DNA of 58,085 bases, filler included, from Sluysia triapertura (taxonomy: Eukaryota), in assembly GCA_046118255.1 (NCBI GenBank). It is 4 parts of 4 records of this genome, joined end to end, with 100 filler letters (N's around TTAATTAATTAA, not from the genome) between each part and the next. Parts side by side here need not be neighbours in the genome. Positions count along the whole stretch, not along the records: positions 1 to 12,180 come from JBJNIA010131515.1; 3 more parts are not named here. One strand, 5' to 3'. The position numbers and the translations under genes were made by a program. Numbering within the stretch: position 1 is the stretch's first letter; each line of letters starts with the position of its first letter. This document shows, piece by piece, positions 1-30,818 of this stretch. Below the pieces are notes generated by a model. That model saw nothing but the letters and a program-made list of their open reading frames with translations. It was not told the DNA's origin and made no database searches.

Positions 1-530
1 AGAGAGGTGAAGGTGAAAACATCTAGAGCCTCCTGAATGCCTTATAAACTATCAAATAACTTTAGAACCTCAATAAATCTTTAAACATAAAATAAGATTA
101 AGTCCAGAAATAGATTAATTAATTAAAATCTTATTTAACTTAATTAAGAAAAAGTACGTTTTTCTGAATAACTTTTGAATGCGGAATGCTATGTTAAATT
201 TGAAACTGCGTATGTAGTTGTTTTGAAAAGACCTTTCGATGATTATATGGTTTGATCGAGTTCATACGAAGAAAGCCTTAATATTTGAGAAATGTCAAAT
301 TTTAATTATGGAATGTTGAATTTCTAATACTTAGAGTGATCCAAATATGATGAATGGAATATGAGATGATTGCTATGAAAGAGAATTCAAAAGTGAGTTC
401 AAAATGTTTGTAAAATGGTTCGTTTGAGAATAAGAACCTTAAAACATTTTTCATTGGAAATTTGGGTGTGAAAACTGGAAAATTAATTAAATAATGGAAA
501 GTGAAATTAAATTCATTATTTTTATGTTTG

Positions 531-1165
531 TTAACAGTATAGCTGATTTATATTTTCTAGTTTTGCTTTCAGAATTATTTTGGAGTCCATTTGTATTTCA
601 TGAGTTTGGAAAGTATTATAACAATTTTTTGGTGTAATTTCAAGATATTCTTCTATCGTTGGTTGCTTAATCAATGAAATATGGCTATTATGTCCACACC
701 ATCTAATTGATCTTTTTCTAGAGACTGCACATTCGTATGCTTTAGTATAAAAATATCCTCTTTCTTGATAAATATGATAAATCTGATCGTATTGTTTAAT
801 AAATTTATTTGAATATCCATCAGGGAATTTTTTCTGCATCGATTAATGAAAATTTTGCTCCAAGTGTTGCATTTTCACAATCAAACGCTTTAATGATTGT
901 ATTCGTTTCTTGGTTCAATTTTAACATTTTTGTCTACGTTTATATTATTACTATCGTTTAACTTAACATCTACTTTATTTTCAGCTTTAACAATCCTAAT
1001 ATTTTCCTGAATATTACTTAATTTTATGTTAGGTATATTATTTGTCTCATTGTCTTTCTTATTGGCTTTAATAATAATTGTGCTTGGCTTATAAGGTAGA
1101 CAACTACATTCAACTATATATTCATTGTCATTAATATAATCATTTTTAATACTAATATTACATCA
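531..1165 (-). pseudogene. env: Chuvirus/Jingchuvirales-like fusion glycoprotein (env) N-terminal fragment, frameshifted and truncated
   Basis: Removing one A from the A-run near 830 joins 900-831 to ORF 531..839: IKAFDCENATLGAKFSLIDAEKFPDG...IYQERGYFYTKAYECAVSRKRSIRWCGHNSHISLIKQPTIEEYLEITPKNC. This fits the recalled chuvirus-G pattern (A/G)(Y/F)DC...SLxD..C...Q.....C......(Y/W)CGxxSHxS...C. An Asn/Lys-rich open stretch continues upstream to ~1165 behind a second frameshift near 900. Confidence 0.7.
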
Positions 1166-2669
1166 TTATTAAATAAACTGAATAACATACGAGTTAGAGA
1201 AATTAATTATTTACCTGAGGTATATGGGTTTATGATTATTGTTATTATTATTAGATTGTAAACAGTCTTTAAAAATGTGAAAAAATTAAAAAAAATAATA
1301 AAGTTTATTAAAATCATTATTATTGTTATTACGGTATTTAATTATAACTGAATTATGAATTGCGTGCTTAAGGCACTTAGAAACGATCATTTTATAGTTG
1401 TGAGGACTAATATAATAAAACTAATATAAATGCATTATATTAAAATATAGGTATAATATAATTATACTCGTTCTTGAAACTTAAGAATTTATAAAACATA
1501 AAAATTATTTATAGAACAGCAAAGTAAATTCTCACAATCGTGACGTCGGATCGACCACGCACACACATACGATGTTTAACATCTCTATCTGATATATTGC
1601 TAATAACTAATTCATCTAGCCAGAACGCCCCATGCAGAATTCGATGTAATCCACACATCCACCCTCGAAACTCATATCCACGTTCACTGAGATCTCGATC
1701 ATTATTCGGTTCATCAACATCGTCCATGGTCTTCCTGATAAAATGTTTTGAAATTTGACTTGAACACTTTAATGCCACTGTAAACTTCAAATCGCCGTAT
1801 TCAACACTTTTCGATATAATATTAAACACTTTAAATCTGCGTAACACTATAGTTATTTCCGTATTTCGTAATTCTTTTTTTATCGATCCATTATACACTT
1901 TAATGTAAGGTTCGTAGATATATGACAGTTTCCAAAGCCGCAAAATCGTCAACCCAGTATTTTCAACCAACTAACCATATGCCACTTATATCATTAATTC
2001 CTAAAACTCGATCAATTTCATATTTTTCTGAAAATTTAATCATATTGTCATTAATCAATTCATGATATGCATTGGACAAGTTCTCTTTACTATATAACAC
2101 AATTGTTCATAATAGCGATTTTTTTGAAACTTCAAAATCGGAAAGCTTCATTAGATTTACTGTAACATTACCTTTAACAAACTCAAAAACTTCATAATTT
2201 TCATTTTTCATTTTCAAGGTTGATTTAATTGCGTTTTTCAAAAATTTTAAAAAAATCTCTTGACACTATTATCAAAACAAAAGAATTAATTCATAATTTT
2301 CATTTTTTTGTGATATATATATATATATCGCGTACAAATTTAAATGATTCATACAATTTACTTTTAAAAAAATGCTACTTTTTCTAATTATACTTCATGA
2401 ATTCGTTTTTTTTTCGAATCTCATTACTATTATATCACGGCTATTACATCAAATGAACTTTGAATAAACAATTTTTAATGTTATTTAAAAAATCAAAGTG
2501 TACAACTGATAAGAAAAATTACAGCTTAACTAAATATATATAAACGTAGTTCTAATTGTTGAATTTTCATTAATTACTAATATTGCTATATTTAACTTTG
2601 CATTATCAAATATCTTGTCTACTGACAATTTAGATAAATGCGGCATTGATTTATTGAAAAATAATCATA

Positions 2670-2830
2670 TACAAATTATTGAACAAAAATTCGATTCTAA
2701 TGATTTAGTGAATGAATTACCATATTATGACTGTGTTATCGGATAGTACTTTTAGTAGTTCTGTCCATAGATCTCTGTTTTCGATTTTATTACCGGATAA
2801 ATCTATTTCTTCAATTCTTGCGTTGTTATT
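2670..2830 (-). pseudogene. Leucine-rich-repeat (RI-like) gene fragment inside the LTR element
   Basis: NNARIEEIDLSGNKIENRDLWTELLKVLSDNTVI fits LxxLDLSGNxI...LxxxLxxNxxL; after a frameshift it continues YGNSFTKSLESNFCSII. Confidence 0.5.
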
Positions 2831-3199
2831 AACGAAAAATAATCCGAATATAAATTTAATAAACGTACACTTGAATTCCACTAATAAAAAGATTAATCTT
2901 GGAAAAGTAGAAGGCTTAACATCTAAATTTAAGTTATAATTAAACATTTAAATCATGCACAAGTACAATACACTAAAAGAATGGTGTCGTAGTGATGACA
3001 AAATGATGATAAACATTATTTAAATATTAATGAGCAAAATATTGATAAAATGTCAGAGATTTTGTAGTGCGTCTAAGCTTTGTTAATGATGAACGATGTA
3101 ATAATGTAAGGATCATGGATGGATTTTATTTTAGTGTGGTTTTTGTGATAAGGTTTATATGGTTTGTGATTAGAATAAGTATAATGATGTAATCTAAGA

Positions 3200-4584
3200 G
3201 GCTGTGCCACCACAAGGTATTTATTGGAACATGTATCTCATGCTTATTATCTTCATGTGGTAATATTGCCTTATTATTTTTATTAAACCAATAATTTTCT
3301 ACTTCCTTAAGTAAACTTTTTTAAGTAAACGGCTTAGGAAAATGCACGTTATTCTGTAAATAATTATACTATTTCTTCACTATTACTTATAGCATCTATA
3401 TACTATATTTAAATACTTGAATATATCTCCAGTATTTGTGTACTCATTACTGATTAATTAAGTAATTCATCAACATTCTCGATATTTACTTCATCATTAA
3501 TTACTTCTTTTTCTTTTTCTTTCTGATTAATATCTTCTGGAGATAATACAAAAATATTACTTGAGTCCATCGTATCATCTTGAGGTACTTCTTCTTTTAA
3601 ATTTTACATTTGTAATTGTAGAGTCAATTCCTTTATTGTTTCTTTTAAATTTTTATTTTCTTCATTAGTGGAATCCACTTGGTTACATAATACTTGGGAA
3701 ACTTGACTTCTACTACGTTTTTGATTATTTCTGTTTCCTCAATTACTTCTACTTCTATTTATGTTGCCAAACGAATTTCGATACCAACAATTACATTTAC
3801 TATGGCCTGATTTCTTGCAAATTGTACATGATTCACTTGTAAATTGTACTTTACTTTGTTGACTTACATTATTATACTGATTTTGCCCTTTATAGCTAAT
3901 AAACTGTGTATTCCGTCGAAAATATTTTACGTTATGCTCATTATAATTATTATTATAAATCTTCTTATCATTGTTAAAAAACATATTATCAGAAAAATTA
4001 TTATACTTAAAATTACTGCGACTGTTAGAAAAATTATTCATTTGTCCATCTAGATCTGTTCGAATTATAGGCTCGTTGGCCATCACATTGGACTTGTGCG
4101 AAATTCCTGTTCTACTCTCTATATTTGACGCTTTTTGTACTAACTCATCTAAATTAGTTAAATCTATCATCAAAAGTTGGGTTCTGATTGGTTCCTTACA
4201 TCCATCAATAAATTTTTCAGTAATTGACTCAAGTTTTTGCTCATGCGTAAAACTGGGACGGTTTCTTTACTATTTTGTATCCTGCCTCGAAAGTTTTTAA
4301 AATTAAAAAATTTAGAGTTTCTAGGAGAAAATCGACTTCTAAACTCATCGATTAAATCTTTCCATGCATTTTTATTTTCTTCAGGGATATTTAAATAAGC
4401 CTCAACCGCTTTACCTTTTAAATGTAGTAGAAAACGTCTACATTGGGTATCCTCAACCCAGCCAAAGACACCAGCGTAAAGTTGATATTGATTCACAAAA
4501 TTTACCGTCAAAAGATTCCAGTGAAAGAACGAAAGATCGCATAGATTCAGTATTCATTTCTTTTTTCTTTCTAGTCTGTGGCAT
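3200..4584 (-). pseudogene. gag: Ty3/Gypsy-type Gag (capsid-like region plus CCHC zinc knuckle), with frameshifts and stops
   Basis: MPQTRKKKEM...LESFDGK/FVNQYQLYAGVFGWVEDTQCRRFLLHLKGKAVEAYLNIPEENKNAWKDLIDEFRSRF (ORF 4170..4511); CTICKKSGHSKCNC = CX2CX4HX4C at 3787-3828; the degenerate frame continues to ~3200. Confidence 0.85.
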
Positions 4585-4652
4585 AAAATGTTAAATCTGA
4601 AATTATAAACTTATTTTTTGCTTAAAAACAAATCTATATAATTATAATGAAA

Positions 4653-4668
4653 CTTCACTGGGGCACCA
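4653..4668 (-). promoter_or_regulatory. Primer-binding site (PBS), probably complementary to elongator tRNA-Met
   Basis: TGGTGCCCCAGTGAAG, 7 nt after ...TAACA and ~70 nt upstream of the gag ATG; complementary to a tRNA 3' end ...CACUGGGGCACCA. Confidence 0.7.
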
Positions 4669-4675
4669 AAATTTA

Positions 4676-4887
4676 TGTTATCTTTTATTACTTTTATTTT
4701 CCCAAATTATAAAAGGTTATTATCAGCGGATCAATATTGAAAATGCAGCTACTTATAATTATTTACTAATCGTTGTACAATTTTAAAAATTGAAAAAATT
4801 CCAAATTTTTTGAAAATAAAAATTGCATTTCACAAATTTAGAATATTTGCTAATCTAGGGTCATGATTATTGATTATAAAGGTAACA
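4676..4887 (-). repeat. Candidate 5' LTR (~212 bp)
   Basis: Termini TGTTATCTTTT / TAAAGGTAACA (9/11 inverted match), AATAAA near the 3' end, adjacent PBS. The outer boundary overlaps the par-3 K-V-T codons, so it is uncertain. Confidence 0.45.
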
Positions 4888-5783
4888 GTTGCATTTGGTG
4901 ACGTGAAAGTTGTTGTGCCTTGTGGAAATGGTGATATAATTATCAGACAATTGGCAGACCTTGCCACAACACGATACAAAAAATCTTTACAGAAGGATAG
5001 TTCTCATTTAAGTTGTATGTCGAACATAACCACTACCTCTTTAGTATTGGCACGTGACAATGGAATTCTTGACTGGGATGATAATGTCAAAGATGTCATT
5101 GATGATCATGAATTTATAATGGCTAAGTTTAATAATAATTCAAGTGGTTAGTTATGTTCAAACAATGCCGATATTTTAAGAGACATAATTTCTAATAGCA
5201 ATAATTGTTACCTAGAACAACAACACCATCCGCAGCATCAACAAAGACAACAACAATATCAACATCATCATCAGTGACATAATTCTATAAATAATCCGTA
5301 CCAATATCAACGGTTATATTCTGAGCCACCGAATTTAAATTCTGAATATCCAAATTCACCATTAAAGCGTAAGGAAGACATATCGATAATATGGCCTATC
5401 CCACTGCCGCCATTGACTGATCTTTCTGAAAATATAAACACAAATGCGCTTCAATATATAGAATTAATTGAAAATAATATCTGTAAATGTATAGTTACCA
5501 TTATAACTACCACAACCTCATCTTTATCATTTTCAGGGTATACCAGTTACTATAACAACACCTGATATCAGTAATGCAGTCTCAAATACTGTTATTTCAA
5601 GCTCCTTACATTTCAGTGACATACTAATAAATCATCGTGATAAAAATGTGATACCAAATAAATATTCAATACCCATGCCACCGCCCGCACAAAATTCATT
5701 GACATCCTCTTCAATTCACCATTTAATAACAACTTGGAATCCGTTTCTTTATCATCTTTATCAGAAAAATCAAACTCACCAAA
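4876..5783 (+). pseudogene. par-3: Processed par-3/bazooka pseudogene (N-terminal CR1 oligomerisation domain plus low-complexity linker)
   Basis: (I)KVTVAFGDVKVVVPCGNGDIIIRQLADLATTRYKKSLQK...DNGILDWDDNVKDVIDD matches the PAR-3 N-terminus. The expected start codon reads ATA (4876); in-frame stops at 5149-5151 and 5275-5277; frameshift near 5535; no introns. Confidence 0.85.
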
Positions 5784-5939
5784 TGTTAGACTTCGTAAAA
5801 TGGACTGACCGGAGATCGAACCCGGGACCTCTAGTTGCGCAGTCGATGCTCTACCGCTGACCTATCAGCCCCGTCTAACGATTTTATTTTATTATAGTCA
5901 ATTTTACAAAATGGCACTTTACGCCTTTTTACCCCAACA
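5784..5939 (-). mobile_element. tRNA-Ala-like mini-element, copy A (tRNA-like body 5801-5871)
   Basis: TGTTGGGGTAAA leader, then CGTTAGAC-GGGGCTGATAGGTCAGCGGTAGAGC...GGTTCGATCTCCGGTCAGTCCA-TTTT-ACGAA-GTCTAACA; A and B boxes present; homologous to 49919-50075. Confidence 0.85.
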
Positions 5940-6248
5940 ATATGAAATAAAATAAAATAAGATTAATAATAAGATTAATAATAAAAATAATAAAAATGTA
6001 ACAATAATGTTGCATTGATTTGTGAGAGAGATGTTTAATCAAAAATTTGGGAGTTATTGGATGATGAGAAAATATAAAAAGGAATACCTAAAAATTTTAC
6101 TTCAAAACAATAACAACAATTAGTAATGCAAATGAGAAGATACATGCTTTAAGTAATTTTTGAATTTATTTTATAATTAAAAATAACAATTTTTTGGGGA
6201 TTTTATAAGCATGAATAATAGTTAATATTTAATAGTTAATGGTTAATA

Positions 6249-6915
6249 TGTTGCGTCACCTCTGGTTTCTTTGGATAGATTATTGTGGTCTTACTATTGT
6301 CATAGATATTATTGTTAATTTTGAAGTTTAGTCATTTTTATTTAATTCACTTGTATTAATGGTAAAGCAGAAACTTATAATAACGACTTGTATTTGATTT
6401 TTTAATTAATATATTCTTGAGTTATTGTTATTAATTTGAATTAAGAACGTAATTTTTGGATTGAATAAATATCATCGTTCAAATAAGAAAATTTGTGATA
6501 ATCTATACTTGATCTAGTGTTATTGAAATTATTGAGATTCTATTTAAGTAAATTAAACTGATATTGATTTATTGTTACAAATAATTTCAAAGACACATCA
6601 ATAATAGTGGTTAAATGAATATTAACACAATGTTAAAATAAACCTGGTGATTTAAACCTGGTGATGCTAGTTTACATGCTAATAATCAGCCAACACTCTA
6701 GTAACTTCTATTTTATTTTTGGAAACGAATTTTCTTTTCTCGAAAATTTATTTTCTTTTTTGGAAAATAAATATTTTAAAATGATTTAGTGGGTTGTGAA
6801 TTCACGTTTCAAAGACAAGTAAAGTTAATAGTTACTAATTTAGAGTAATTTGGCAACAAAATTAATAGTTGGCACGAAAACTTTTAGTTTTAAAATAAAC
6901 TTTTAGGTTGAAACA
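6249..6915. repeat. Solo-LTR-like remnant
   Basis: Begins TGTTGCGTCACCTCTGGTTTCTTTGGATAGAT (inverted homolog ending ~39211), ends ...AAACA, and contains the shared GATGCTAGTTTA promoter-core motif near 6662; no TSD found. Confidence 0.4.
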
Positions 6916-7763
6916 TTGTTATTAATGTCATTAGAACATAATTACATACACGTAACCTACTGAAAATTTTAGAGATATAAAGTTTGAACCAAGATTTAGT
7001 CATTTTCAGAAGCATTCATTTAATTCTAAAATTATTTTTAAAGAAAATCCTATAAGGTTGTCTTCCATAGGGATTTAAATTTCACGTTATAGGTTGACTC
7101 AATATATTCAAGTAAATGATTAACTCATTAACACTCATAAAAATAATAAAAATAGTTATATTAATGATCTTAAATTTAAAGCAATAGAGTTTATACATTC
7201 GTCGATTTTTAAAAACATAAAGCATGTAATCATTGGATTATTAAATTAGGGCGATAGTTTATGTATAAAAAATGATAATAAGAGTTTTAATGATTTAACA
7301 TTATTAGAAAAGTATAATGAGTCATAACGATCAACAAATGAGCAGCAGAAATGATATCAATACTGATAATACTGATATTAATTGGATGAAGAATATTGGA
7401 ATGAAAGAAGATATGTAGATTATTTAGAAAAGATTACTTATATGAATACATGATAATGTAAAGATGTAAGATACATGATTGAATATGTTTGTGAATTCAT
7501 GATTTTGGGTTTTGACTCACCATAAATAGAAAATTTCAACTATTATTTTGTAAAATAATAGTTGAAGTTCATTTTTAAATTTGAACGATTAATCAATAAA
7601 TTACAATGCAGCATAAGAATCAAACTTAGAATATATAAATTTCAACTTTAATGTCACACTTGATTAGAAAAACAAAAGTCAACAGTGCTAATTATACATT
7701 ATTATTTATAGTATTATGATAATAACAAAAAGTGATATTTAATAAATAAAAATTATATCAAAA

Positions 7764-8507
7764 ATGAATGAAGCAAATGAACTGTACGTGATTGGGGCTG
7801 GTCAAATGAGAACGGGAACAATGTCAATGAAGGAAGCTTTACAAATTATATATCCTGGTACAAACTGTTATCACATGAGAGAAGTATTTGAAAATCAATC
7901 TCATGTTAATATTTGGCAAGAAGCTCTTAAAAAAAAGAAATTAACTAAAGAGATGGCAAATCAATTATTTAAGAATTACAAAGCAGCCGTGGATGTTCCG
8001 GCATGTGTGTTTTATAAAGATTTAATGGAGTTATATCCAAATGCTAAAGTGATTTTAACGACAAGAGATAGTAAAAGTTGGTTTAAGAGTGCTTCTAAAA
8101 CGACGTTGCCTTCTAGAAGTTTTTCATGGTTGGAATTTTTCCTTGGTTTTAATCAATCGTTTTATAATTTTACACGTGACATACTTAAATATCAGTATGG
8201 TTATTCAACAACAGAATTGTTATCAAATGAAGAGTTTTGTAGGAAAAGATTCGATAAAATTAATGAAGAAGTACGTCAATATGTTCCAACAGATCGATTA
8301 TTAGAATTTAAACTAGGTGATGGTTGGGAGAAATTGTGCAATTTTTTAAATGTTCCTGTTCCATCGGTGCCTTATCCACAGTTAAATTCTACCGATGATT
8401 TTAATAAAAGAATTAACAGAAAATTATATCTTCTAAGAGTAATATCTTATGGATCTATTGCTATTATTGTTGGAATTATTAGTTATATGTTGAAGTACAA
8501 ATGTTAA
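7764..8507 (+). CDS. Sulfotransferase, Sulfotransfer_4 / schistosome SULT-OR-like family, single exon, C-terminal TM anchor
   Basis: 247-aa intact ORF with VIGAGQMRTGTMSMKEALQIIY..CYHM (PAPS P-loop), VDVPACVFYKDLMELYPNAKVILTTRD..W, VPTDRLLEFKLGDGWEKLCNFLNVPVP..YP..N, and hydrophobic tail VISYGSIAIIVGIISYML. Confidence 0.93.
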   Translation: MNEANELYVIGAGQMRTGTMSMKEALQIIYPGTNCYHMREVFENQSHVNIWQEALKKKKLTKEMANQLFKNYKAAVDVPACVFYKDLMELYPNAKVILTTRDSKSWFKSASKTTLPSRSFSWLEFFLGFNQSFYNFTRDILKYQYGYSTTELLSNEEFCRKRFDKINEEVRQYVPTDRLLEFKLGDGWEKLCNFLNVPVPSVPYPQLNSTDDFNKRINRKLYLLRVISYGSIAIIVGIISYMLKYKC

Positions 8508-11500
8508 ATGAAATGTAAACATTGTATTCTAAATTTTAGAATGGTTGAGATAATATGGTTAAATTTAAAAATTATTTTACTCTAACTTTAACATCTTTAA
8601 TTATTTTAGTTTATTTTTTGATTGTTATTAAATATCAATTTTGTTGATTTTTACACATTAGTTCAATACTGAAATAGAAGCCGAATTCCGAAAAGGTATT
8701 TAATTCGAAGAAGAAAAAAGGTACTCACTTGTAAAAATTAATTAATTGATTAATGACTTTCGGTTAAAATGTCTCTCTATTTATATCCATTTGGTAATGC
8801 TGTATAATTGCCTATAACTATTGTAATTACTTTTAGAAATTATTATTCCGTAAAATTCGTTTGTAATTACTTTTTTCCATTAAATTATTCTGTATAATTA
8901 CTTTTTCAATTGAAAATCCATTAAGGTCCATTAAGTAAATATTCCTTTTTTCTTCAATCCATTAAACATTAATTATTTTTTCTTTAAAATGCACTATTTT
9001 TATTTTTTTAAAGATTTTTGCATTATCGTTAATAATTATTTTTTTATTTAATAATTAAATTTTATATGTAGAATAATTAATTTAAATTGGAAATGGAGAT
9101 TAAACTAAATTTGAAATTAATTTAAGTTTTTATTTTATTTTATTTTTAACTTATTTTATTTACCGTATTATTATTGTTACTCGAATTTAAGGCGCAACAA
9201 ATAAGTTTTATTTTGTTTAAGCTTCATTAGTCAGATTGATTTATACTTATTCGATATATCATAGTATTATTATTATTACCAATAATAATAATATCGAAAG
9301 GTATTATTGCAAGGTACAACCAACAAATTTTATTTTGTTTAAACTTCATTAGTGAAATTGTTTTATACTTAGTCTCTATATCATAAAAGTTATTTATGAA
9401 TTCGACTCTGATGGTAGAAATACGTATGCAAATTTTAGTAGTTAAAATAAGTTAAAACTGTTAACTCAAAAATATATCGAACTAATAATATACTTAGGTA
9501 TATTTAATGAAAGCAATTAAAAAATATAAATACAAATATATTGCAAAGGACCAAACGTAGTAATTATGATATTATTCATTTTAAGTCTAGTTTATTTTAA
9601 ATTTTTTTAAAATTTACTTTATTTATTGTATTTTATTAACGTCGATTACGATTTATAAAGATGGCTAGTTAATAAAAGTTAGTGAATTTTTTATCCGATT
9701 AGAATCAAAATTGTTGAGCAAAACTGATAGTTATGTTTATGGGCTTTTGAGTAGAAAAATTTACTTATAAACATTTCCACTAATAGTTAACAATTTCATT
9801 CGGTAATAATTTTTCTATATTTCTATAATTTCTTAAACTTAATATCAAATAAATGATTTAAAAAGACGTATTAACTCAATAAGATTAATTTAACCTATAT
9901 TTTAATTAATTTTCTATAATATTAGTTTATATAATTACAAACTATTGTTAGGGTTTTTAAGAGTTAGAATTTCATGAGTTTTCTTAATTTAAAAAATGCT
10001 TTTTTCTCTTGTCAAACCCTAAATAACTTAGCGAAAACTTCGATAATTCTATTATGGTATTGATTTCAACAAATATATTTCGACTTTATAAATTTACTGA
10101 CATGTCTTAATAGCGTGTGACATATTCAGCGGAAACATTTATCCTAAATTTTCTTCTTGAACACAATGTGTTGTGTCTTTAATAAATTAATCTAAATTTA
10201 TTGCTATCCTAAATTCAAATTTAAAAGAAAAGTTCAATTAAATTCTCTGAATCACAACTATCACTTAGTACAAACAAGTAAAATTTAACACAATTATCAA
10301 TTAACAAAATAATCGTTAAATTTCCTAAAAGAAAAATATATTACAGGCCACATAATCAAACAATGACAATTAACTTAATGAGGTACTAATAATCTAAATT
10401 TATACATTTAAACAACAGCTTAAACCTCGGCGTTATTCTCAACAAAATTAATTAATTTAACTTAAAATAAAATTAAATAAAATGAATTATAAAATTAGTC
10501 TTGATGTTTTCAATTAAATATAGAAGTGAATAAAATGTTTTAGAAATTAACTGAGCCCACATACGGTCCTAGTCCTAGAAATTACGGCTAAGCTGTAGGA
10601 ATTTAAATAAGAATGGTTATGCACACTTACTGGAGGTTAATTTTAGTTCTCAATAACTTAAATCTTAACGTTTAACTATGTTTGCTAATTTTAATATAAT
10701 TCCTTCAAATAGAGCTAAGTTATTTAATAATAATTATTACTGAGATTCGTAAATAAGTTTGGCTACATTCAATATAAGTTATCAAATGAGATTCTACATA
10801 GGATCTAACAAATCTATATTTTACTAAATGCGATATGAAAAGCCGGTTTCAAAATCTTATTCAAGGATAATTTAAAATAAATTGCTATACTATATAAATT
10901 GCTAATGATCTTTTTAAAATAATATCAAATTTAAGATTCAGTGTTTGAAAGAAAAATAATGATTTATTAAATAAAATAAAAACAAGAACTACATGGTCGT
11001 TAATCACAATAATGTAAAGTTTTTTGAAAATTGATTTTACTTAGAACCTTTTAAATGGTTCTGCAAAACATTTAACCATAAGATTTTGAGTAAAAGTTTA
11101 CAAATGTACATAAATAGTACGGAAACTTAATTAAAATAAACTAACGAATATGAATAATGCGTTGAACCAGTTCAAGGATAATTACAAAAGGTAGCTGCTA
11201 GTCGAATATAATGTTCACCCAAAACTTTGAAAAGAAAATATGCCTTTATCGCATTAGTTATGAAATTAGGTACAATAAATATTAGTTACAAACATCTATT
11301 ATATTTATAATAGATTTGATTTGACCTTAATACATGACATGATAAAACAAAAAATTAAATTTACATAAATAGTCTAATAGTTTACGTCCAAATATTTAAA
11401 ATAAAATAGTCCGGATCCAAAATACTAATTAAATATTAAATAAATATTTAAATACATCAATAAATATTTACAACATAGATATTATTAAAACACGTAGTTA

Positions 11501-12180
11501 ATTGACTTAAACACGGAATCATAAATTCGTACATATAACAAATATTTAAAACATTATTTAAATCATAAATTCAATTGTCTATAGTACATATATTTAACAT
11601 AAACATCAACGATAAACGTAACAATTTTGTTTTATTATAGTCAATTACACTATCATTATTCTATAGCATTTTAGGCCTGTAACTCAACATAATGTTAAAC
11701 TTTTAATGTTGCTTATTGGTGAAGTTATGTTTAAATTATGGTTTACTCATGAAAACACATTCTTGCTAGAAGGAAGACATCCAAAATGCTTGATAATTTG
11801 TCTTATCATGCATAGTATTTGCTGCATTGCAGAGTTTTATTAAAGTTTTATTCCTAGGGTTGTCGAGAGTTATTTTATTTATTTCAAATTTAATGAATAT
11901 TGGCTCAAGATGACCCAAAACAAAATGAAACGTATCGTAAAAATGTCTCAATTTAAATCGCTGAATATCAAAACTGCTATCTTTCGAGAACACTCGATCA
12001 ATTGTGCGAAACGTTATCAGACTCAAAATCTTATGGAAAATATCATCAAGAACGCATTTAATTAGTTGAACAATATACAAATTTACTAATGTCTACCAAT
12101 ATCATGTGGGCCTTCGCAAAAAAAACGAATACATACTTTAAAGTTTTCATCACTATTGAAACTTTAAAGTTTTCATTTAC

Positions 12181-26904: not shown

Positions 26905-27627
26905 CTGAACAATAATTAAATAACTTTAAATTTAAAATACTTATAATTGTTACAAATTATGCTTTATTATTAAGTGAAGAAGAAGAATTTATGAACAGAA
27001 TAAAAATATTCTTACACATAATTTGCATTGATGCAGAGAGATAATTCTCCGGTTTAACCCTGATTTTAGAGTTCGAATGATGAATGTCAAATTTCTTTTT
27101 AATTATAATATTGTTGTCTTTCAACTATAATTTATATTTAATTCCAAATATATTATTTATTAAATAGAATGATTACCAGATACAAATTTGTAGCCACCTC
27201 GGATGTTTCTAGAAACGTACAGTATTCGATATTCAAAATGAGGATCTATTAATTCTAAATGCCCAAAAAGTGAAGTTACATGAAAAAACTCTTAGGAATA
27301 GTAGCAGTATTAATTATTTATGAGTCAGTGATTATTAAATAAGACAAGAAAAATTACTTGCTGCTACGTGATAGGATGGTTTTGTGGTAAAGATATTGGT
27401 ATATATTTCTTGTACTTAATGACTTTATCGCCGCCGTTCATAACTTTTGACAGATAAATTTTTATACTTTTAATTTCAAATGATTTATTAACACAACATT
27501 GAAAATCGTTGTTTATTTACTATGTGTTCCAATTATTTCAATGAATTTTTCATAATATTATTATTAATTATAATTATTATTATTATTATTTTTTTTACAC
27601 TTACTGTGTAATATATTAACAACATAC

Positions 27628-28137
27628 CTTTTTAACTTCTTGTAACAAATCTCTGTTAACTTCTAATCGCTTATCTCTTTTTATTGGTTTAAGAGCTACA
27701 ATATGCTTCTTATACAGAGCAGCACAGCCATACACCACATTGTTGTCTCCACCTGTAATACTGTCAATAGAAATATGACTACGTTCGTGATCTGAATCGA
27801 AATCACCCTCATTGGTACTACATTGATTATGTCTTTGTTTGTTTTGATAGTTTTTATCTTTAGTGAATATTGCACTCAAATCACCGCAAGCAGACCGAGG
27901 ACGTCCATGATCCAAATTAGCACTATCATCACTACTAACACCATATTTTGTAGTTATTTCTCTACCAATTGATTTAATTATCAAATCAATATCAGTTACA
28001 GAAATCGCATTTTGAAAATGTTGCTTTTCATTGGACAATTTTCTATTAAGATCCATACTGTTGCTATTACTCTTTGTTAAACGAGAGGTTTCCATCAAAT
28101 TCTCGTGACTGTAGCTTCCACTGTTAGACATTTTCTG
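27628..28137 (-). CDS. Receptor guanylyl cyclase juxtamembrane/KHD exon A
   Basis: Low-complexity region, then VYGCAALYKKHIVALKPIKRDKRLEVNRDLLQEVKK|GTATG, phase 0 into exon B; acceptor AATTAG|CAG (NAGNAG ambiguity). Confidence 0.85.
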
Positions 28138-28313: not shown

Positions 28314-29047
28314 ATATGAGATCTTCTTCCAACTTGGAGAATTAATCTTGCTGCTTGATTAATTATTAATTGTAATTTTTTCACTTTTCTGTCTGAAATT
28401 GAGTACAATAAACCATTGTTAAAATCAATATTGCTAGTTATCAGTGAGTGAACAATAAGTTTAGCTGTTTCTTTATTAATAAATTTTCGAATATGTGATT
28501 TATACAGTATTAAAGAATTTTATACAGAATGATTTATACAGAATTTTAGAATTGATTCCTATTAATTTGATTTTGACATTTTCAAATAAATTGAAACTCA
28601 TTTATTAGTTTTATCATATCTTTTCGTCATTTTTGTAATTGAAACATTTTCATTTTATTTTAATTTGGTTGTGTTATACATAAAAAATTAAAATAAATAA
28701 ATAAATAAATAAATAGACAAGCAAGTATTTAAATTAGCATAAATTAAAAAGATATGAAAAAAATATGATTTGTATGTCGATTAACATCAAGCATAATAAA
28801 ATAAGTATAACTCACTACAATAAGTAATAAATGTAAATAGTAAATTTTGTTTTACTTAATCATTGATTAGTAACTTTAATTGTTGTTAAAAAACTTTGAT
28901 TCAAAACTGTTGACTATATAAATATTATTTTCATATATCAATTTTTTAATTTATTAATATTTCAAATTTAATTTAATAATTTAATTTAATAATTTCAATT
29001 TCAAGTTTTCGTGATATAAAATTTTCAATTATCTAGTGTAATAATTT

Positions 29048-29974
29048 ATGTTTCAAATTAAAAAGTCGCATACTACAGATTTGTCGAAACTTCGTGAAAT
29101 ATTAACTCAAGATATTGAAGATCATATTGATAAAGTAAATCAAGAATGTGAAAAAATCAATTTAGCGGAATTAATATCTTCTGACAAAGAAAATAATGAC
29201 GAAAAAATCGAAACACATGTGCAGAAAAATAAAAGAAGCAAAAGCAACATCAAATCAATAGAACGTCCATCATTTCTAGTAACCAGAATCGATACGAAAT
29301 ATAAACCATTTTATTCGAGAAATCATTTATCAAATAATCAAAAAACATCATCTTTAGTTTATAAAAGTATTCATTACGATTCAATTATTCGAAAAGAGGA
29401 AAGTATTAACAAGCACTTGTTAGAATTACAAAATAATTTAGAAAATGAATTAATAGCTCGAGCAACTTCTATTTGTGATACTAGTATTCGAGAAGCTAGA
29501 CAGCTGATTCAGAATTCTTTGGCCACTAATCGAATAATTGGTGGTTTTTTTGAAGAAATTAAGAAAAGTGAAGGTTGCACTTTAAATAATGTCACTACTA
29601 ACAAAACAACAATGTTAGATACTTCACTTTTAGAAAATAAAGTTCAAAAACCATTAAATATAACTCCAGACTTAAGAAATGGTGTGGATAAAAAAGTGGA
29701 GTTATTCGGTTTTACGACCAGTTATATGGATCAAGATGTTGTAAATTTAGAAAAAAGAAACCGTAGGACAGAGAGAACAGAACATCACTTAGATTACAAT
29801 GAACCGCACATTCGTGCATGGTTGGATAAAAAGAATCGAGATTTGGAGATAGAAAGAAAAAGTCGAGAAGATGAAGCAAGAATTAAAGAACGGTCTCAAT
29901 TGGCTATGGAAGCAGTCAAAGATAGACGGCGTGAAATGGCACAACGTGCTTATAAAAGGTGGTTACAGGACAAG
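29048..29974 (+). CDS. Coiled-coil protein (CCDC181/CCDC34-like motif), exon 1 of 3
   Basis: ATG 29048, 309 codons, donor AAG|GTTAGG; paired RAWLDKK...AQRAYKRWLQDK charged-helix motif. Confidence 0.8.
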
Positions 29975-30202
29975 GTTAGGTGTATTATCTGGATGAGTAA
30001 ATTCGTGTTAAAAATTTATTAACTTGATTCAAATTTTAAAAGATTTCTATTTTTTCAGTTTAAAAACTGTTATTCAAGAATTTACAAGTTTTAGCTCCGT
30101 TTTTATTATATATTTATTATATGTTTTTGTTAAATGTTTTTGGTATTTCCGTCGGCCTACCTTTTCGTTTGTATCTTTATACAAGCAATTTTTTGAAAAT
30201 AG

Positions 30203-30260
<58 letters not shown>
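30203..30260. repeat. (AAT)n microsatellite
   Basis: Perfect run in intron 1. Confidence 0.95.
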
Positions 30261-30263
<3 letters not shown>

Positions 30264-30432
30264 TAGTAGTAATAAAGCGTTTAAATTAAGCTACTAAGAT
30301 CGTATTTTTCAGAACAATAAAGGAAGCTTATGAAAACATCATATCATTATATGCATTTGTTTGCCAAATAATAATTTTTAGATTTTTGTCATCTAATACA
30401 AGATTTACGATTTTCTAATTCTATATTTTTAG

Positions 30433-30759
30433 ACCGAGCAGCAAGATTTTTCGCCTCAGATAACTCAAATCTCAGTTTCGAATCATGTAGACAACAAACC
30501 AATCGGATATACGCTACACAATTCTGTGTTTAAAAGGACACCTTTCATTATCGATAGACCAAAAACTACGGCTTCGTTTAATATTCGTAAAGATGTTGAT
30601 CTTAAAGTCTACGGATTAGCCGCTTCCATACAAGACTCGAATACCGAACGTTACCGGCACTTGACAGCTCGACATATTATCGAATACCCCATGCCTGTTA
30701 CCAAGAAATCTGTAATGGATTATCAAGATAGTATTGGTAGAACCATTTTAAGACCACAA
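30433..30759 (+). CDS. Coiled-coil protein exon 2
   Basis: TTTTTAG|ACC ... CAA|GTAAGA; 327 nt, phase 0 at both ends, open throughout. Confidence 0.8.
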
Positions 30760-30818
30760 GTAAGAATAATATTATTTCAAAATATTAATTACTGACAATT
30801 TATTTAATTTAATTAAAA

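Follow-up and report, generated by a model that had tools for sequence, protein, structure and literature searches.

A probable broken Ty3/Gypsy-type gag-env-pol element with the start of a gB-type env in a genome assembly of Sluysia triapertura

The DNA studied here (the window) is a stretch of 58,085 nucleotides, filler included, joined from four parts of the Sluysia triapertura assembly GCA_046118255.1, with positions 1 to 12,180 taken from JBJNIA010131515.1. Between positions 531 and about 4780 it very probably holds a broken copy of a Ty3/Gypsy-type retroelement of the planarian gag-env-pol kind, in which gag comes first on the minus strand, followed by a ubiquitin-like linker and by the opening part of a glycoprotein B-type (gB-type) envelope gene (env); the copy is split by a likely unrelated 2-kb insert and ends before pol. 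Read along the minus strand, a remnant resembling a long terminal repeat (LTR) is followed by a TGG reminiscent of a primer binding site (PBS), gag, a CCHC knuckle and one linker piece; beyond some 2 kb of intervening DNA lie another piece of the linker and the glycoprotein. Protease, reverse transcriptase (RT), RNase H and integrase, which come next in intact relatives, were not detected in 1-4800. Elements of this kind are already in print, and the copy is likely one more unremarkable dead member of an established family, as opposed to a fresh chuvirus capture. The latter had been proposed by the original prediction, made from the sequence alone, which saw at 531-4887 a Gypsy-like LTR element with a chuvirus-like fusion glycoprotein in the env position.

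The env remnant at 531-894 (-) represents the N-terminal part of a class III (gB-type) Env. It is read in two frames, 894-823 and 824 to about 549 (-), so the single frameshift that had been suspected is present, near position 823, and similarity ends near 550. The open reading frame (ORF) at 842-531 (-), open for 103 codons, matches the Pfam family PF24664 (Monjiviricetes_fusion) with an E value of 4.6e-10, above the curated cut-off. In a joint tblastn comparison 894-561 matches residues 391-501 of P0001 (HBK71150.1), the best database relative (E 2e-34), and a further relative, P0017, matches the window env with E 1.5e-9. Just before the env motif a hydrophobic stretch is found in all ten relatives checked and in no frame of the window.

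Structure prediction, which the original prediction had named as a check, was informative via a relative and not via the window itself. The model of the window's own 103-residue ORF (predicted local distance difference test score (pLDDT) 54, one match at Z 2.1) is uninformative, whereas the AlphaFold model of P0002, a relative 35% identical to the window piece, matches gB of herpesviruses and GP64 of baculoviruses (E ~1e-7) with low template modelling scores (TM-scores) of 0.13-0.31; the pLDDT of this model averages 53 and is mostly 70-93 across residues 180-340. The ten best predicted viral structures for P0002 in BFVD are glycoproteins of Tacheng tick virus 4 and of qin-related, chu-related, xinmovirus and similar viruses, at 16-20% identity. 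As qin-related and xinmovirus glycoproteins rank alongside chu-related ones, the label "chuvirus-like" is right at the level of the Monjiviricetes family and its gB-type fold, but it is not specific to chuviruses. The motif pattern cited by the original prediction is not chuvirus-specific either. Judged by sequence and by the model of a relative, the window env is a predicted member of the family of class III glycoproteins of chuviruses and other Monjiviricetes.

Within this family the window env sits with retroelements. Our env tree (FastTree, midpoint root) comprised 48 rows, i.e. seven polyprotein envs, six fragments including the window ORF, and 35 other glycoproteins drawn from 57 matches by omitting rows outside 590-720 amino acids and two others; none of these 35 arthropod or unnamed glycoproteins is named by its source as chuvirus. 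The window env groups with P0001 and P0010 (55% and 44% identity; support 0.998), a group that lies in a larger clade of retroelement-type envs including P0007 (support 0.987), and the window env is 25-55% identical to the 12 retroelement-type envs as against 13-24% to the 35 others.

The relatives stem from a HMMER scan of the env ORF against 1.84 billion representative proteins, which returned 13 matches at E 0.001: nine with PF24664, two env-like fragments without a Pfam match (P0009, P0010) and two instances of repeat-protein noise (P0003, P0008). A word-based search with the same ORF for longer proteins gave none at E 0.001 among 23 candidates, and no DNA loci came from a genome-contig search with P0001 or from metagenome-contig searches with P0001 and the window ORF. 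P0001 is a single ORF of 2,627 amino acids, 54% identical to the env ORF (E 4.5e-26), which runs from CCHC through env, protease, RT and RNase H to integrase, with a single knuckle and without the start of the capsid region; its best match among PDB sequences for Pol is Ty3-G Gag-Pol (E 4.9e-119). In P0017 a single ORF spans a capsid region, a knuckle, env and the first part of a protease. Env lies before protease within one ORF in P0001, P0004, P0005, P0011, P0014 and, weakly, P0017, and in P0001, P0011 and P0017 gag features, env and protease are all joined in this way; thus, env is located between gag and pol in the window's family and not in the classic position after pol assumed by the original prediction, and no pol match was found in 1-4800 of the window. 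Intact relatives keep one reading frame from gag through linker, hydrophobic leader and env to the pol domains protease, RT, RNase H and integrase. P0002 contains a Bcl-2 domain and P0014 (4,844 amino acids) ankyrin, both of which are domains of the planarian Burro elements, and P0001 and P0014 are 48% identical in Pol and 35% in env. P0007, in which 104 of 111 positions are by eye the same as in Smed_errantivirus_1 (eLife supplement), joins an env piece to mitochondrial ribosomal protein L47 and is likely a gene-prediction chimera.

Upstream of env in the minus-strand sense, the PBS-like site, gag and the single CCHC that had been described on one strand were all recovered. The PBS-like site, starting with TGG at 4668-4658 (-), contains the only copy of its 9-mer in the window and may resemble the 3' end of an elongator tRNA-Met. 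The gag capsid region follows at about 4557-3922 (-) in at least three frame pieces, delineated by a match to Retrotrans_gag (Pfam, E 3.5e-4, weak and below the curated cut-off), by tblastn, in which residues 35-125 and 138-239 of P0017 match 4526-4257 and 4266-3922 (E 1.7e-9), and by six-frame translation. Next comes the stretch 3849-3487 (-), which contains the CCHC knuckle detected by a motif scan at 3828-3787 and then an acidic/coiled region with in-frame stops, and which matches residues 24-138 of P0001 (E 2e-10). A capsid region followed by CCHC, as required for Ty3/Gypsy elements (Metaviridae), is therefore present in the window.

The outer limits of the copy were read with the help of depth in run X1, possibly the source sample itself, where values are summed contig depth per bin, not copy number. 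Depth is 3,900-99,000 over bins 3256-4774 (9,582 in bin 3256-3472) and 2,100-76,000 over 652-1302, whereas it is 130-625 over 1303-2821 and 1,128-1,344 over 2822-3255, both below both flanks, a pattern that fits an abundant element interrupted by a rarer insert. On the right, depth drops from 41,745 in bin 4558-4774 to 44 in bin 4775-4991 and amounts to 25-44 in the bins from 4775 to 5642. Because it collapses in this way, the LTR-like sequence that remains is no longer than about 100 bp; it is likely the 3' end of the 5' LTR at 4669-4780 (-), which is indicated by the depth drop and by AATAAA motifs just upstream of the PBS-like site, with the left limit given by that site and an approximate right limit. 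No second LTR was found in the window. The right boundary of 4887 given earlier has to be abandoned: it lies inside a plus-strand Par3 N-terminal stretch, 4867-5148 (+) (PF12053, E 5.7e-23), where X1 depth is equally low, and hence is not an LTR start. The par3-like reading frame, 4876-5600 (+), continues through several stops, has ATA at the expected start codon and lies in low depth; it is likely a processed par3 pseudogene. On the left, positions 1-530 adjoin the env remnant and belong to a different, very abundant repeat outside the element, with an X1 depth of ~1e6 and no env or pol match.

Between CCHC and env, intact relatives carry a linker. A profile built from the linkers of four relatives has 35 PDB matches (best E 0.002), 33 of which are chains with a ubiquitin fold; taken singly, the four linker stretches match no Pfam family. 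The same profile ranks the window ORF starting at 1162 first among 2,494 six-frame pieces (E 8.4e-5), and 1156-911 matches residues 271-353 of P0001 with a score reached by none of 200 shuffles, which assigns 1162-911 (-) to the second half of the ubiquitin-like domain and a low-complexity spacer. The first part of the linker probably lies at 3400-3215 (-), where depth is at repeat level and a short, weak match to P0001 is found. The two parts are separated by a likely unrelated insert of about 2 kb, 1224-3214, that has no P0001 match and whose sides correspond by extrapolation to about residues 243 and 250 of P0001. It is flanked by a direct repeat of 6 bp at 3220-3215 and 1223-1218, which proves nothing on its own, as a second 6-mer match arose in the same comparison. 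The insert shows no prominent terminal repeats and no usable family match in Pfam, Atlas or PDB. Segments that had by eye resembled a chromodomain (2040-1903) and an RNase H or leucine-rich repeat piece (about 2830-2720) were unsupported, each with best E values of 0.02-0.2, and a joint 3295-1414 seen in the X1 data, which possibly arises from an AT-rich inverted match, was not used. The gap is not decayed pol; neither protease nor RT, RNase H or integrase was detected in 1-4800 (Pfam, six frames, stops read as X). As a separate observation, the insert holds an ORF of 153 codons (1970-1509, -) and decayed coding-like pieces at moderate X1 depth.

The window copy is dead. It contains frameshifts and stops, has lost the hydrophobic leader, and its env ends after about 115 codons; as gag is frameshifted, the leader is absent and most of env is gone, this copy is unable to spread infectiously. 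In intact members the Env ectodomain would enter the endoplasmic reticulum by way of the internal hydrophobic leader, and cleavage, as suggested by the domain order, would free Gag, Env and Pol. By what is generally known of class III fusogens, an Env trimer would then enable enveloped particles to fuse with further cells, of which stem or germ cells are the likely targets, and the family would spread by infection plus intracellular copying.

Several points weigh against our reading of the stretch as a broken gag-env-pol copy. P0001 is filed at NCBI as a hypothetical protein of a metagenome-assembled genome of Flavobacteriaceae, which we consider likely to be eukaryotic contamination of the bin, and with its one knuckle and compact frame it is unlike Burro1-4. 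The match of 3377-3327 to P0001 residues 190-206 fits in order, but 22 of 200 shuffles score equally, and only the second half of the linker profile, i.e. of the ubiquitin-like domain, was detected in the window. The model of P0002 is of mixed quality, as its mean pLDDT and TM-scores indicate. Moreover, the Ty3/Gypsy assignment, putative for a window without pol, is read only from the relatives, and we infer the fusion activity of gag-env-pol elements and their infection of cells from domain order and from class III fusogens.

Other explanations were weighed on the same evidence. That a Gypsy element captured a chuvirus glycoprotein independently and recently would agree with the PF24664 match, with the chu-related virus glycoproteins among the top BFVD matches of P0002 (E 1e-26) and with the Negarnaviricota-rich clusters that are the Atlas look-alikes of the P0017 env. 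However, P0002 is as distant from its ten best viral proteins as stated above, qin-related and xinmovirus glycoproteins rank alongside, and in our tree, whose comparison glycoproteins include none named as chuvirus by its source, the window env nests inside the clade of 12 retroelement envs, together with planarian gag-env-pol envs described in 2019 (PMC6431247) and 2026 (PMC13524379). As P0001 and P0014, in addition, have both Env and Pol in common, such a capture is very improbable. A similarly slight chance is left to the reading that a gag remnant came by accident to lie next to a viral fossil or a piece of an unrelated env. The 2 kb of unrelated DNA between gag and env, the weak upstream linker match and the finding that no listed X1 contig spans the stretch speak for it, but two separate single-ORF proteins, P0001 and P0017, match both window gag and env in order, which makes chance nesting unlikely and argues for one Ty3/Gypsy-type element, as had been supposed, and in P0001 the residues that correspond to the two flanks of the insert are almost adjacent.

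Even less probable are a BEL/Pao origin and domestication. DUF1759, Peptidase_A17 and DUF5641 are BEL-specific Pfam families, and BEL-type Gag has three knuckles. None of these families was seen in P0001, P0005 or P0014 at E 0.01 or 0.05, the window has one knuckle only and the best match of P0001 Pol is Ty3; an Anakin-like BEL/Pao element is hardly to be expected here, even though BEL/Pao elements with a chuvirus-like env exist in mosquitoes (PMC7642597). An env or gag fragment domesticated to serve the host might account for the 103 open codons of ORF 842-531, yet frameshifts and stops occur throughout, the leader is missing, env is truncated and X1 depth is repeat-like, and we give this explanation next to no weight. 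The stretch is thus best read as a dead gag-env-pol copy of the Ty3/Gypsy type.

A flatworm host, as assumed by the original prediction, is likely and plausible from the low GC content, the env kin and a sulfotransferase of the oxamniquine type, but unproven. The GC content of the window is mostly 20-30%, which is compatible with a flatworm and no proof. The sulfotransferase is an uninterrupted Sulfotransfer_4 ORF at 7746-8507 (+) (E 4.7e-65) with a hydrophobic C-terminus; oxamniquine-type enzymes are its best PDB matches (E 1e-47 versus 6e-34 for the next group), which is likewise compatible with a flatworm. Elsewhere in the window, two tRNA-like copies that are related to each other and have an unusual anticodon loop are located at 5801-5871 (-) and 49989-50058 (+), the first of which lies in bins of very high depth and is likely a tRNA-derived short interspersed element. 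An RT remnant at 51019-51633 (+) (RVT_1, E 8.5e-8) is likely from a non-LTR element. A kinase-like exon at 17612-18361 and a second exon at 27616-28137 (-) resemble a receptor guanylyl cyclase by eye, and CCDC34-like exons at 29045-30795 (+) give a weak match.

The known systems fall into retroelements and viruses. Among the latter, glycoproteins of Jingchuvirales and other Monjiviricetes share the Pfam family (PF24664) and the class III fold with the window env, but the relative P0002 is only 16-20% identical to its top ten viral matches and no other viral genes lie beside the window env. Anakin, described by Dezordi et al. 2020 in mosquitoes, is an LTR element with a glycoprotein of the chuvirus-like family as well (PMC7642597), but it belongs to BEL/Pao and has insect hosts, whereas the window's relatives have a Ty3-like Pol and env before pol. 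Dezordi et al. 2023 report no clear capture by Gypsy in their arthropod screen (PMC10084718).

Closest are the planarian elements. Arkhipova and Yushenova 2019 described Burro, whose env lies in frame between gag and protease/pol, matches mononegavirus fusion glycoproteins and is preceded by a ubiquitin/SUMO-like domain between gag and env (PMC6431247). Burro/GYPSM1 thus has env before protease and a ubiquitin-like linker between gag and env in common with the window's family (PMC6431247), but its ORF of about 5,000 amino acids includes two or three knuckles as well as MATH, BCL2, BIR and ankyrin domains (PMC6431247), whereas there is a single knuckle both in the window and in P0001, the latter being compact. 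MATH, BCL2, BIR and ankyrin domains were absent from 1-4800 and from P0001 (Pfam), i.e. the traits of Burro1-4 proper (multiple knuckles, extra domains, a giant ORF) are seen in neither. Chary and Hayashi (eLife 2026) report that errantiviruses of Platyhelminthes, Nematoda and Bryozoa carry only HSV/gB-type env in the order GAG-ENV-POL, list nine Platyhelminthes elements, one of them with 215 copies, find ENV-POL matches in 5 of 5 Rhabditophora genomes of their table and place the Schmidtea elements inside Ty3/Gypsy (PMC13524379). They favour an ancient origin of the gB-type env, state the entry mechanism of gB-carrying elements as unknown and mention that a chuvirus-like glycoprotein of mosquito BEL/Pao adjoins gypsy pol (PMC13524379).

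The branch formed by P0001, P0010 and the window copy is compact, has one knuckle and may be unnamed. That it is a compact Burro-type branch abundant in a host outside the surveyed flatworms is unlikely; if true, enveloped elements would have crossed between distant animal groups by infection. For the field the question is whether the gB-type Envs of gag-env-pol elements fuse cells, and whether they are ancestors or descendants of Monjiviricetes glycoproteins, for which the broken window copy gives no better test than the intact Schmidtea elements. What the copy adds is a compact branch that has likely not been described before, and a further host genome with apparently abundant gag-env-pol elements. 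Compared with Smed_errantivirus_1-6, which are likewise of the Ty3/gypsy type with an HSV/gB-type env between gag and pol (PMC13524379), the window copy is broken, lacks pol and lies with P0001 and P0010 on a separate branch, with an env that is 36% identical (33/91) to that of P0007, by eye a near copy of Smed_errantivirus_1.

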